DNA of 64,000 nucleotides, taken from NCBI GenBank assembly GCA_964016885.1, contig OZ024741.1:391096001-391160000 (forward strand), in the 5' to 3' direction. Of the stretch, positions 3,487 through 58,211 are shown one piece after another; position 1 is the stretch's first letter, and each line of letters opens with the position of its first letter. The DNA comes from Eledone cirrhosa. Its lineage: Eukaryota. The notes under the pieces are model-generated. The model was given only the letters and a program-made list of their open reading frames with translations. It had not been told where the DNA came from and searched no databases. Both the position numbers and the translations under genes were made by a program.

Positions 3487-3534
3487 AACATTTGAAAAGA
3501 TGGCTTTTGCAGACCCATCGAAACCGGTCATTTT
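3487..3534 (+). ncRNA. Minimal type-I hammerhead ribozyme, U3-A8 core variant, in the PLE 3' terminal region
   Basis: aacat-TTGAAAA-GATGG..CCATC-GAAA-CCGG-TC-atttt; 5-bp stem II, palindromic stem III, GUC site; stem I has one mismatch. Confidence 0.7.
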
Positions 3535-3636
3535 TTATACCCTTTATTATTTCCTTACCTTATAAAATTATATGTTTTTTCACAAAAAAGTATTCTGTCT
3601 CTTATATATTCCATGTGCCATTACCAACCTCAATTT

Positions 3637-3812
3637 TCTCTCTCTCTCTCTCTCTCTCTCTCTCTCTCCTCTCTCTCTCTCTCTCTCTCTCTCTCTCTCT
3701 CTCTCTCTCTCTCTCTCTCTCTCTCTCTCTCTCTATATATATATATATATATATATATATATATATATATATATATATATATATATATAGAGAGAGAGAG
3801 AGAGAGAGAGAG
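3637..3812. repeat. (CT)n(AT)n(AG)n microsatellite
   Basis: Directly visible. Confidence 0.95.
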
Positions 3813-4272
3813 ATCGTCTTCTTGGCTCTCAGAAGCTCCTCTGGTGAAGGGCTCTGTCTCAACATCCAGTTCCTCAAACAGCCGCCTGATCTCCCCAGTG
3901 CTCTGGGCTGTGGAGGGTGGCTCTCCTAGTAGGGTCCTAAAATGGTCTAGCCATTTACTCTTCCTATCCTCGGCCCCGCTCCCTGGATCTGACTCGAACA
4001 CCTTCTCTTCCTCCCTGTGATCTCGCTGATGATCATCCAGCTCTCCTTACATCCAGATCTGTCAACCGCTCTCTCCACACTTCTGATCTTCTCTATCAGT
4101 GCCTCCTCTCTGACCTCAGTGTAAGCGGTACAGAGCTCTTCCCTCATCACCTCCACAGTCTCCATCCTCTCCTCCGTAGGATCAGCATAGAATTGGTCCC
4201 TGGCAGCTTTCAGGTGTTCTCTGGCTGCACACACTTTTGGGTTTGCAGAGCTGACGTACTTCCCTTTGTTCT
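3813..4272 (-). mobile_element. Inverted 5' segment of the adjacent RTE LINE
   Basis: Minus-strand frames resemble the pre-RT linker (KESWMIISEITG, SKWLDHFRTLLG); its end duplicates about 30 nt at the start of the + strand RTE (gaggagctt..gccaagaagacgat). Confidence 0.8.
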
Positions 4273-4274
4273 TT

Positions 4275-5778
4275 AGAGGAGCTTCAGAGAGCCAAGAAGA
4301 CGATCAAGGAGGGCAAGGCTCATGGAGAAGATGGAGTGGCATCAGAGGTGATGAAGAGGTGTGATTTTAATGATATCATCCTGGGGTTCTGTAACGGGGC
4401 ACTGGAGAAAGGAGTTGCCCCGAATCAGTGGAGGATCAGTAACATCGTCCCAGTGCCAAAGAAGAGAGATCTCTCTAACACCAACAACTACCGGGGGATC
4501 TCACTGACGTCACTTGTGGAAAAGACCCTCAACAGGATGATTCTTAACAGGATCCAGCCTGAGATGGAGAAGAAGCTCAGGGACAACCAGAACGGCTTCA
4601 GAGAGGGTAGATCAACCACCAGTCACATCCTGATGCTGAGGAGGATATTAGAGGGATCTAGAGCAAAGTGCCTTCCTGCGGTCATGGTTTTCATTGACTT
4701 TAGGAAGGCCTTTGATTCTGTGGACCGTTACTGCCTGATGAAGATCTTACAGGCTTATGGAATCCCCAAGAGGATAGTGGACCTGATATCACTGCTCTAC
4801 ACCAACACCAAAGCCCAAGTCATTACACCTGATGGGATGACAGAGTTCTTTGAGATACTGGCTGGAGTGCTCCAGGGAGATACATTGGCTCCCTACCCTT
4901 TTATCATCGTAGTGGACTATTGTATGCGCCTTGTACTGGAGAAACACCAGGACTCTGGCTTTACTGTAGCACCGGCTCAGAGCAGGAGAGTTAGGGCGAA
5001 AAAGGTATCGGATGCTGAATTTGCCGACGACATAGTTTTGGTGACAAATACAGTGAAGGAGGCAGAGGATTTGATGCGGGAGGTTGAGACTGTGTCGATG
5101 AGTGTGGGGCTGAGAATGAATGAGACTAAAACAAAATATCTGGTAGAGAATGTTGAGAAGCCAGAGGAGATCACTAATGTAGGCGGGAAGCCGCTGGAAT
5201 TGGTTGAGGACTTCCTGTATTTGGGAGCAAAGATTGGGAATACGGAAGATGATGTGGTTGAGAGGAAGAGCAAGGCCTGGGCGGCGTGCCACAGCTTGAG
5301 ATCGGTGTGGAAGTCGGACCTTCGTAGAGACCTGAAAATCCGCCTCTTCATTGCTGTAGTGGAGTCTGTGCTGCTGTATGGGTCTGAGACTTGGACACTG
5401 ACCAAGAAACTCACTCAGATGGTGGATGGGTGCTACACTAGAATGCTGAGGATGGCTCTGAACATTAATCAGTATACACTGAGGATGAAAAACTCGGAGC
5501 TGTGTAGGGGCGTCCCAAAGGTCGGCTCAAGGGTGGCACAGAGGGGACTGAGGTTGGCTGGACATGCTCACCGACATCCAGAGTTGACATTGCACTCAGT
5601 ACTCCTTTGGGAGCCCCTACATGGACACACTAGAAGAGGAAGACCAAGGTTAACGTATGTTGATGCCCTAAGGACAGACACTGGTCTGTTGGAGATACAG
5701 GACATGGCAGTGATAATGAGGGACAGAGACCGCTGGAGAGAACTCGTCCATGGATCTCGGGAATTTTACCCGCCTTAG
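4275..5778 (+). mobile_element. RTE-clade LINE, 5'-truncated RT and C-terminus (ORF 4336-5778)
   Basis: NYRGISL, QNGFREGRST, FIDFRKAFDSV, GVLQGDTLAP, FADD, LLYGSETW, LRLAGH, RGRP; ends directly in (TA)n. Confidence 0.93.
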
Positions 5779-55116: not shown

Positions 55117-55287
55117 ATAGATAATATTTATAAGTATATTTTATGAAGAATTAAGGTTGCAAGTATATTTTACTTTATTATATTATATAACTCTTTGCTT
55201 ATATATATATATATATATTAATAAAAGGTGACAGTCAAGTTTGCAATTTTCGTCGAAAATTGCAAACTTGACTGTCACCACAGAATA

Positions 55288-55326
55288 TGAACCTGAAGAT
55301 TGCGAAAGCATGAAAGTACTTGTTCA
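55288..55326 (+). ncRNA. Ultra-minimal hammerhead preceded by a 53-bp palindrome (55227-55279)
   Basis: tgaac-CTGAAGA-tTGC gaaa GCAt-GAAA-GTAC-TT-gttca. Confidence 0.75.
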
Positions 55327-55672
55327 ATTAACATTTATTATTCTACCATACTATTTCATTATAAAATCATTATAATTTTAAAGGATTGTAAATAAAATGA
55401 GTTAATCAAAGTTGGAATTCCTTTTATTAATATAATCTTCTATACACAATCATACACACACCTGTGTATATTTATTTACACACACACACACACACACACA
55501 CACACACACACATATATATATATATATATATATATATATATATATATATATATATATATATATATATATATATATATATATATATGTAAAAGGTAAACAG
55601 AAATAACAACGCAATCGGTACAGTATATGGAAGGTATATATTAGGTTAACGCTTGATATAGCAGGTAGAGGG

Positions 55673-55708
55673 TCTTAACGTTTCGGACGCTAGTCCTTCA
55701 CCAGAAGA
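55673..55708 (-). ncRNA. Penelope-type minimal hammerhead with A6G change
   Basis: Minus strand tctt-CTGGTGA-aGGAC tagc GTCC-GAAA-CG-TT-aaga. Confidence 0.65.
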
Positions 55709-56380
55709 TAAACACACACACATATATATATATTATTTGTCTAAGCAGAAAGTACCTGATTTAGGAGTTGCAGAAACCCAAATGCTGGATTTTACCAACC
55801 TTTCAGGGGTCCGGGTATAATTTTCAATCATATTTTATTTGTTTGACCCGAATTACTTGGTCGTTTCTATGGCTGTGCGGATAATGGATTAACCATCGTC
55901 TCAATGTGTTTGGCCTTTTAACTTATCTTGTAGCTCTAGTTCACTAGCTTCTATGGAGCGCTTGCCACACATCTCAGAAGTTGTTTTTCGCTAATTTCCA
56001 ATAGCCGAAATACGATTCTCGCTAATTTATATGTGTATTAATCTCCAGAGTCTAGAAATTGACCAGTTAATCTTCTTGATTTTTTTAGTTAGTTCTATTG
56101 ACTGATGAATAGCTTTTGTTAATTTTAAAACCATTCTGCTGAGAACTTAAATTCGTTTTGTGATATTTTGCAATTTGCAATAATAACACACATACTGAAT
56201 TCATCCGCCAAATATCTGAGTAATATGTTAGTACTTCTAATGTACAAACCATATTATATCATTGAGTCACGACCGGAGCTGAACCAATTCTCTTCGACTA
56301 GCTTCGTATAGCAATATTTATATATATATATATATATACATGTATATACATGTACATATATATATATATATATATATATA

Positions 56381-58211
56381 TTTAAAAGAATAGAGGTGTA
56401 AGACACGAGTTATGATATATTGGTAAAAGGAAAAGAAAATGGTGACAAATTGTTCCCAGTGAAAAATAGTTTAATTAGGAATAAGTAAAAATTAGTAATA
56501 GTATTGGTTAGTATTCAGTTTTGGTTTTAAGTTTTACCGGTTGCGTATTTCTAATGCTTTTCAAAAATAATTTTGAGATAGAGCGCCCGTGATGTTTGCT
56601 CTAATCTGATTAGTTTTGGAAATTCTACCTGTTTTATGTAAAAAAAAGTGGCTCCAGATGTATGAAAAAATTATTGTGGTCAAAACAATTTTGATTGGTC
56701 GGTAGAGGTCATGTGAATGTTAAAAATTGATTTTCCGCCAAATGTAGGTTTGTCTCGGCTGATTGAGAAGTCACTGAAAAATAAGTCTTTCAAGACAAAT
56801 ATGTGTGTGTGTGTGTGTGTGTAGTAGTAGTAAAGAGGTTCGTTGTTGTGATAATGGTCAGCAGGGATGTGTGTGCGAACCGCAGCCTGCTGACAGTTCA
56901 AATGCCTATTAAGACAAGTGTGTGTGTGTGTGTGTGTGTGTAGCAGAGTAATTCGTGGTAGAGGGATCGGTCAGTAGGAATGTGTCTGTACGTGTGTGGG
57001 AGATATTTTAACATGTTAAAAGATATTTTTCAGCTCTTGTCTTATACGGAGAAGTGTGTGTGTGTGTGTGTATATGTCTCTTTGTATGTTAATGTACGCG
57101 TGTGTATGTGTGTATGTATATATATGTGTGTATGTGTGTGAGAGAATGTGTGTGTGTGTGTGTGTGGGTGGACCAGTATTTTTGTGATACTGGTGAAAAT
57201 GGTGTACATTATTCGATATTTTCAGTAAAAACGATTCTCTCAATAGAACATCAAAAACCTTAATAATAAAAGGTGTGAAATGATATATAGTATTGGCATA
57301 ATACCAAGGTGTGTGTGAGTGTCCAGATTGTACATACTGCAAGGGGAATCCATTAGGCCTTGCCGTATTGGAATACTTGTGTACAAATATGTATGTGCCC
57401 ATCAGTGTGAAATGCATGTGTGCGTATATGTATGTGTGTGTGTCGGCACGTTTATATCTATAGACATCAAAAGGTATGCAAATATGTGTGTATATTTGTG
57501 TTGCACCATAGAACATGAGTGTTTACGTATGTCATTGTGTTTATATGTGGATAGAGATGTATGTAAGATGTATGCTGATGTAGGTATGTATGTTGACGTG
57601 TGTATGTTGTGGGTTCGTCTTAGGGAGAAGTGTTTAGACGGGGTCCGTATTTGTTAATAAAGTGAGATTCCTTGCTGATGCGCTGGGTGTGGGTGGCATT
57701 ATCTTTAAATTTGTAGAGGGGAAAGATTCTGAAGTTGGGATGATTTTGGGCGGCACAGGTATCAATGTGTTCACTCAGTGGTATTTGCCTCTTTACTACT
57801 ACTACTACTACTACACACACACACACATATTTGTCTTGAAAGACTTATTTTTCAGTGACTTCTCAATCAGTCGAGACAAACCTACATTTGGCGCAAAATC
57901 AATTTTTAACATTCACATAACCTCTACTGACCAATTAAAATTGTTTTGACCACAATAATTTTTTCATACATCTGGAGCCACGTTTTTTACATAAAACAGG
58001 TAGAATTTCCAAAACTAATCAGATTAGAGCAAACATCACGGGCGCTCTATCTCAAAATTATTTTTGAAAAGCATTAGAAATGCGCAACCGGTAAAATTTA
58101 AAACCAAAACTGAATACTAACCAATACTATTACTAATTTTTACTTATTCCTAATTAAACTATTTTTCACTGGGAACAATTTGTCAGCATTTTCTTTTCCT
58201 TTTACCAATAT
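56381..58211 (-). mobile_element. Truncated Neptune-like PLE: EN C-terminus (57620-57790), 3' UTR, about 424-bp inverted repeats (56415-56838 / 57788-58211), short tail
   Basis: RQIPLSEHIDTC..NFRIFPLYK..QRISKESHFINKYGPRLN is homologous to the C-terminus of ORF 2-2278. Confidence 0.88.
58060..58097 (+). ncRNA. U3-A8 hammerhead variant (mirror at 56531-56568), with A13C change
   Basis: attt-TTGAAAA-GCAT tagaa ATGC-GCAA-CCGG-TA-aaat. Confidence 0.55.

Follow-up and report, generated by a model that had tools for sequence, protein, structure and literature searches.

Hammerhead motifs with a U3-A8 core pair in Penelope-like elements of Eledone cirrhosa

In a 64,000-nucleotide stretch of the Eledone cirrhosa genome (contig OZ024741.1, positions 391,096,001 to 391,160,000 of the forward strand; hereafter the window), several Penelope-like elements (PLEs) carry, at their 3' ends, hammerhead motifs with U3-A8 where the usual catalytic core has C3-G8. 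Perreault 2011 reported that C3-G8 covaries to U3-A8 in several natural hammerheads and that activity in vitro had been shown earlier, the section on these cores drawing no link to PLEs (PMC3088659). Cervera and de la Pena 2014 described about 1,300 U3-A8 PLE hammerheads in Schistosoma mansoni, missed by their first descriptor, and the 56 representatives of their Fig. S3 comprise 53 with C3-G8, two with U3-A8 (UUGAUAA and UUGAAAA, S. mansoni 3 and 4) and one with U3-G8; the single Neptune element listed there, from Acropora, has C3-G8, the Schistosoma Cercyon element has U3-A8, and minimal metazoan motifs showed low activity in vitro (PMC4209133). U3-A8 PLE hammerheads are not new, given these publications of 2011-2014, and the warning in the preliminary description of the window that searches requiring CUGANGA would miss them, correct in itself, already stands in PMC4209133. 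The Poseidon hammerhead of Anolis carolinensis is likewise a PLE repeat in which the 3-8 pair was tested by mutants: single changes at 3 or 8 kill the protein-assisted reaction and a double change partly rescues it, although it differs from the motifs studied here in its clade, its native C3-G8 and its engineered G3-C8 rescue (PMC11167929). G12 and the 2'-OH of residue 8 have published catalytic roles (PMC6155905).

The closest parallel is S. mansoni Cercyon, which has in common with the window type I hammerheads placed within the terminal repeats of PLEs, a palindromic stem III, G10.1-C11.1 and the cores UUGAAAA and UUGAUAA; in the window, by contrast, the host is another one and one carrier is a Neptune-like element, there is no extra base after A9, the stem III palindromes have 6 and 12 nucleotides (4 in Cercyon), and stem I is weaker in the Neptune-like element E1 and long in a short repeat family (PMC4209133). 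We located TTGAAAA at 3492-3498 (+), 58064-58070 (+) and 56564-56558 (-), and TTGATAA at 10238-10244 (+) and 6814-6808 (-), in agreement with the preliminary description, whose 6808 and 56558 are the low plus-strand coordinates of the minus-strand cores. All five read N3-UGA-N-N8-A with a Watson-Crick U3-A8 and are set in the anatomy of type I, dimer-type hammerheads at PLE 3' ends. The G12-A13-A14-A15.1 box is present at 3492, 6814 and 10238, where one extra A stands just ahead of GAAA, and stem II is closed by G10.1-C11.1 over at least 4 base pairs at 3492, 10238 and 58064. The palindromic stem III with its NUH site reads, by copy, ACCGGU-C, ACAAGGCCUUGU-C, ACAGAGCUCUGU-C and ACCGGU-A. Stem I is strong at 10238, consists of four A-U pairs at 58064, is absent at 6814, and at 3492 is weak, with two A-U pairs, a C-U mismatch and two further A-U pairs.

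In AT-rich, repeat-rich DNA such motifs might be chance matches, and the bare heptamer TTGAnAA is indeed uninformative by itself, occurring 70 times on the two strands of the window; folding the short motifs as single strands gives z-scores short of significance, and 58064 is found only with one further core mismatch permitted, at a score of only 20. Against this, TTGANAA-N9-30-GAAACCGGTH has one match in the window (3492) where 0.01 is expected, and a descriptor that demands the type I anatomy in full but accepts any base at positions 3 and 8 scores 26 at 3492 and 24 at 10238, shuffled windows giving 0.07 matches per window at a score of at least 22. The motifs also lie where they are expected behind PLE coding sequence, the one at 3492 is fixed at the family level, and two diverged copies of the short family carry theirs in homologous placement. 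Chance was already unlikely for 3492 and 10238, and overall we give it next to no weight. The copies at 56564 and 6814 passed no scan in homologous register and were recognised by homology. Of the 170 matches in an Rfam scan of the window (E up to 5), the 150 listed include no hammerhead family.

The E1 motif lies about 1.2 kb downstream of an intact PLE open reading frame (Table 1) and has a predicted cut at GUC after 3529. The E1 protein displays the feature set of Neptune PLEs, namely a C-terminal GIY-YIG domain with two cysteines within it, a CX2-5CxxC linker and DKG, and the window resembles the setting of these elements in its microsatellite-rich surroundings and inverted truncated copies (PMC8557442). 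The Neptune label of E1 rests on these features, our tree having no named Neptune references, and the Neptune clade is itself paraphyletic (PMC8557442). We aligned four of 20 listed sequencing runs to 3200-3630 at 80% likeness and listed differences from 5%. One of them (X1) had a single contig over the motif and was excluded from the count; depth over the motif was about 89,000-122,000 (summed contig) in X3, about 230,000-310,000 in X6 and about 770 raw reads in X18, figures that do not equal copy number, and the contigs of such runs drop rare variants. In these three runs neither 3492, nor 3497, nor the stem positions show an alternative letter at 5% or above, and variation inside 3487-3534 is confined to loop II (3509 and 3510). 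With 3492 and 3497 invariant at the 5% level across the three runs, U3-A8 is the consensus of the E1 family under two coded species labels and not the state of one decayed copy. In X18, reads end sharply at 3421, 3470 and 3569; these ends were considered as element boundaries and rejected, as they match AATT sites at 3418, 3468 and 3566 and are likely an artefact of library digestion.

The short family, with its unit at 10146-10406, has no coding sequence within the window; the inverted layout and the (TA)n ends suggest that it is a truncated PLE end, 9995-10145 and 10256-10406 together forming a PLE-type inverted structure flanked by (TA)n tracts. Its hammerhead at 10238 has a predicted cut after 10275, and the predicted dimer of 10208-10304 takes the dimeric hammerhead fold. 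In the diverged copy at 6814 the stem III palindrome is kept via two compensatory double changes, a G stands opposite A at the first stem I pair and stem II is closed by G-U. In the copy at 25338-25511 the hairpin was perhaps lost when the reverse transcriptase skipped over the stem. A minus-strand CTGATTA near 10172 was rejected as a second core, since it is the upstream flank in reverse complement. The 3' tail of the family (10304-10406) contains three more small hairpins before (TA)n that are kept in all four copies; reverse transcription may begin in this region, which would then be the PLE tail.

E2 is a remnant that has lost its 5' part, reverse transcriptase included, and its motif lies about 1.1 kb past the PLE endonuclease fragment. 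Both E2 motifs, 58064 and 56564, have GCAA (A13C) for the G12-A13-A14-A15.1 box, which violates the hammerhead core consensus quoted in PMC7151607, and in the 56564 copy the second stem II pair is a C-A mismatch. Because of the GCAA in E2 and the missing stem I at 6814, these three copies are likely dead, so that the preliminary description cannot be followed in ascribing function to all five; the other two are fair candidates for activity, as predicted from their sequence. The best matches of the E2 fragment are the proteins P0003, P0005, P0001, P0002 and P0004 (56-62% identity), which fall in one starred clade with P0001 in a quick tree, and E1 and E2 have the ACCGGU palindrome in common. 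By these comparisons E1 and E2 are sister families, and because of this their U3-A8 is most simply explained by a single event and probably has one origin. The DNA similarity of the E1, E2 and short-family repeats to one another is no better than that of shuffles.

To place these motifs among relatives we used 87 related loci, retrieved by a profile of 35 of 121 stored proteins (the best 80 of 369 metagenome candidates, and 7 others); no PLE relatives were found among the viral contigs searched. A sense-strand match with a score of at least 20 is present in 25 of the 87 loci and absent from 62, many of the latter being short contigs. The 27 sense matches reduce to 23 distinct motifs: 17 with C3-G8, four with U3-A8, one with A3-U8 (L024:1959-2010 (+), score 28), one with G3-C8 (L027:107-163 (+), score 33) and none mismatched, the stems being intact in both of the rare forms. 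Antisense matches number five, three C3-G8 and two mismatched at 3-8, and shuffles give 0.42 sense matches per replicate, of which 0.29 are mismatched, falling to 0.013 at a score of at least 28. The three low-scoring, less secure U3-A8 relatives do have their motif 145-240 nucleotides past the coding region. When the 3' scan was relaxed, over 29 loci, it returned the three known matches and only two weak new ones, each with an extra core mismatch (L010, U3-A8, score 18; L035, C3-G8, score 21). We found no report of natural A3-U8 or G3-C8, or of a Neptune element with 3-8 covariation, in literature searches, and unread supplements may hold cases of the former. Some of the PLE reading frames come from bacterial genome bins or symbiont records (L081-L087; P0014, P0043, P0046, P0055, P0101), probably by contamination from animal hosts.

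Because all 23 distinct sense motifs are Watson-Crick at 3-8, the comparison supports selection for this pairing across PLEs. To this extent the earlier proposal that a double change in three diverged families betrays selection stands; three independent origins are not supported, given the 56-62% identity of the E2 fragment to the P0001 subclade. Among the distinct sense motifs of the relatives, none is mismatched, against four with U3-A8. At a probability of roughly 0.8, we read the window motifs as type I PLE 3'-repeat hammerheads of the published U3-A8 variant, which likely keep the 3-8 pair; those that are intact would be weak cutters, acting as dimers or with the aid of the element's protein. 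Activity, the dimer route and the mutational path are what we infer from sequence. The stem III palindrome would join two transcripts, or two tandem repeats; a U3-A8 pair would then position the 2'-OH of residue 8 to act as general acid, with G12 serving as base; and cutting after GUC would be weak or protein-assisted. Two transitions, favoured by AT-biased mutation, probably produced the U-A state, selection having acted on the pairing but not on which bases form it, and the short family perhaps acquired this state separately.

Several observations weigh against this interpretation. DNA-level template switching can also yield covariation in palindromes. The predicted monomer fold of 3480-3540 is an alternative hairpin that buries core and cut site, and the predicted dimer is not a hammerhead either, but the objection is weak, as two C3-G8 controls likewise do not reach the complete fold. 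Stem I of E1 is weak in the family consensus too. Of the four U3-A8 matches in relatives, three score 20-22, near the noise line. With A13C in both E2 copies, a defective RNA may have transposed, and one of the 56 published representatives has the mismatched U3-G8 (PMC4209133).

The most serious alternative is that the motifs are dead relics, in which C3 to U and G8 to A, the commonest AT-ward transitions, became fixed in master elements that no longer needed cleavage. Hammerhead cutting is dispensable for insertion in vitro (PMC11167929), and this reading would accommodate the A13C of E2, the lack of stem I at 6814 and the copy at 25338 without a hammerhead. It also agrees with the more AT-rich flanks of A-U-type cores (GC 0.22-0.35, n=5, against 0.27-0.52, n=18, for G-C-type cores; p=0.025, uncorrected for relatedness). 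Drift, however, predicts single mismatches, of which the 23 motifs have none; A3-U8 and G3-C8 require transversions; and the remaining E1 core and stems have no listed variant in the three runs. We regard this reading as improbable, though not negligible. Far less probable is that U3-A8 is a tuned state specific to Neptune, perhaps slowing the cut. Both Neptune-like elements of the window, E1 and E2, do carry it, as the preliminary description held, and so does L085 in the same broad clade. As a clade marker, however, it is largely refuted. In the quick tree (34 rows: the 25 loci with sense matches, P0001, seven close proteins and the PLE piece at 32204), the starred 12-row clade of P0001 has C3-G8 in L005, L006 and L081 and one more U3-A8. 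Elsewhere U3-A8 is scattered: it occurs in L045 and L057, where no linker motif was found, L045 being sister to the C3-G8 locus L068, and L017 is sister to the A3-U8 locus L024. The C3-G8 of the Acropora Neptune and the U3-A8 of Schistosoma Cercyon (PMC4209133) further speak against the split between Neptune and Nematis drawn earlier, as do the Hydra-clade motifs of the element at 35574 described below.

Table 1. Penelope-like element and short-family features of the window and their hammerhead motifs
Feature	Position	Strand	Description
E1, intact PLE open reading frame	2..2278	+	758 amino acids; reverse transcriptase, DKG motif, CX4CxxC linker, C-terminal GIY-YIG with two internal cysteines; Neptune-like
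E1 3' hammerhead	3487..3534	+	U3-A8 core 3492-3498, 5-bp stem II with G10.1-C11.1, GAAA, ACCGGU palindrome, GUC
E2 C-terminal endonuclease fragment	57629..57793	-	55 codons; 57% identical to P0001, 62% to P0003
E2 3' hammerhead-like motif	56531..56568	-	U3-A8 core 56564-56558, GCAA for GAAA, stem II mismatch; likely inactive
Inverted E2 motif copy	58060..58097	+	U3-A8 core 58064, GCAA for GAAA, ACCGGU palindrome, UA site; likely inactive
Short-family hammerhead	10209..10303	+	long interrupted stem I, U3-A8 core 10238-10244, 4-bp stem II and extra A, 12-nucleotide stem III palindrome, GUC
Short-family inverted 5'-truncated copy	9995..10145	-	begins 4 nucleotides before GAAA, without the 5' half of the core
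Diverged short-family copy	6647..6820	-	about 89% identical; core 6814-6808; stem I absent
Short-family copy without hammerhead	25338..25511	+	both flanks kept; whole hammerhead hairpin (about 100 nucleotides) missing
C3-G8 comparison hammerhead	35574..35644	+	core CTGACGA at 35582; 35574 is the start of stem I; inverted copy 31396-31326

The window also holds eight C3-G8 copies (9744, 10630, 10880, 12807, 31388, 35582, 37983 and 44576) with scores of 36-52, well above those of its U3-A8 copies. The frameshifted PLE at 32204-34332 is flanked by 909-bp inverted repeats (31291-32199 and 34775-35679), each with a long-stem-II C3-G8 hammerhead. Its motifs are DKT and CxCX5C, a single cysteine lies between the equivalents of GIY and YIG, and the paired cysteines are missing. 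The preliminary description called the element at 35574 Nematis-like, an assignment we reject: its motifs do not fit the Nematis set of DKG, CX2-5CxxC linker and CCHH and follow the Hydra-clade pattern of PMC8557442. Two related palindromic insertions (9646-9862 and 10530-10980) contain the C3-G8 hammerheads with cores 9744-, 10630- and 10880+, whose stem III palindromes read AUAUAUAU and whose sites are UA, and the strong C3-G8 hammerheads at 12807, 37983 and 44576 (+), unmentioned earlier, have an A/U-rich stem I and UA sites. A hammerhead-like motif at 59187-59140 (-), with U3-A8, an A at position 5, good stems I and II and a score of 23, is possibly another decayed U3-A8 family, and 6100-6040 (-), where an imperfect stem II and GAAAC come after a CTGATGA core, is possibly a decayed minimal hammerhead. 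Non-PLE reverse transcriptase reading frames lie at 4255-5778, 13523-16003, 48989-51039, 52419-53102 and 59640-60173, one of them with an apurinic-type endonuclease as in long interspersed nuclear elements. A dispersed repeat of about 185 bp, resembling short interspersed nuclear elements and 80-93% identical between copies, occurs at 17270-17456 and in some ten other places (e.g. 22908, 27070, 43817, 46780, 54662 and 54932).

U3-A8 recurs across PLEs and is not a marker of Neptune. With both the variant and the warning on CUGANGA-only searches dating from 2011-2014, the significance of the window is modest: it adds a further PLE family, intact and apparently of high copy number, in which U3-A8 is fixed, together with a small tally, 23 of 23 Watson-Crick and six of 23 other than C-G, that bears on whether PLE hammerheads cut in vivo. 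A more tentative generalization, which we consider possible though on balance doubtful, is that the 3-8 pair of PLE hammerheads switches repeatedly among the four Watson-Crick forms, tracking local AT content and avoiding mismatches. If true, surveys based on CUGANGA would undercount PLE hammerheads by about one quarter, and the switching would be comparative evidence that these ribozymes must reach the active fold in vivo despite the dispensability of cutting in vitro.

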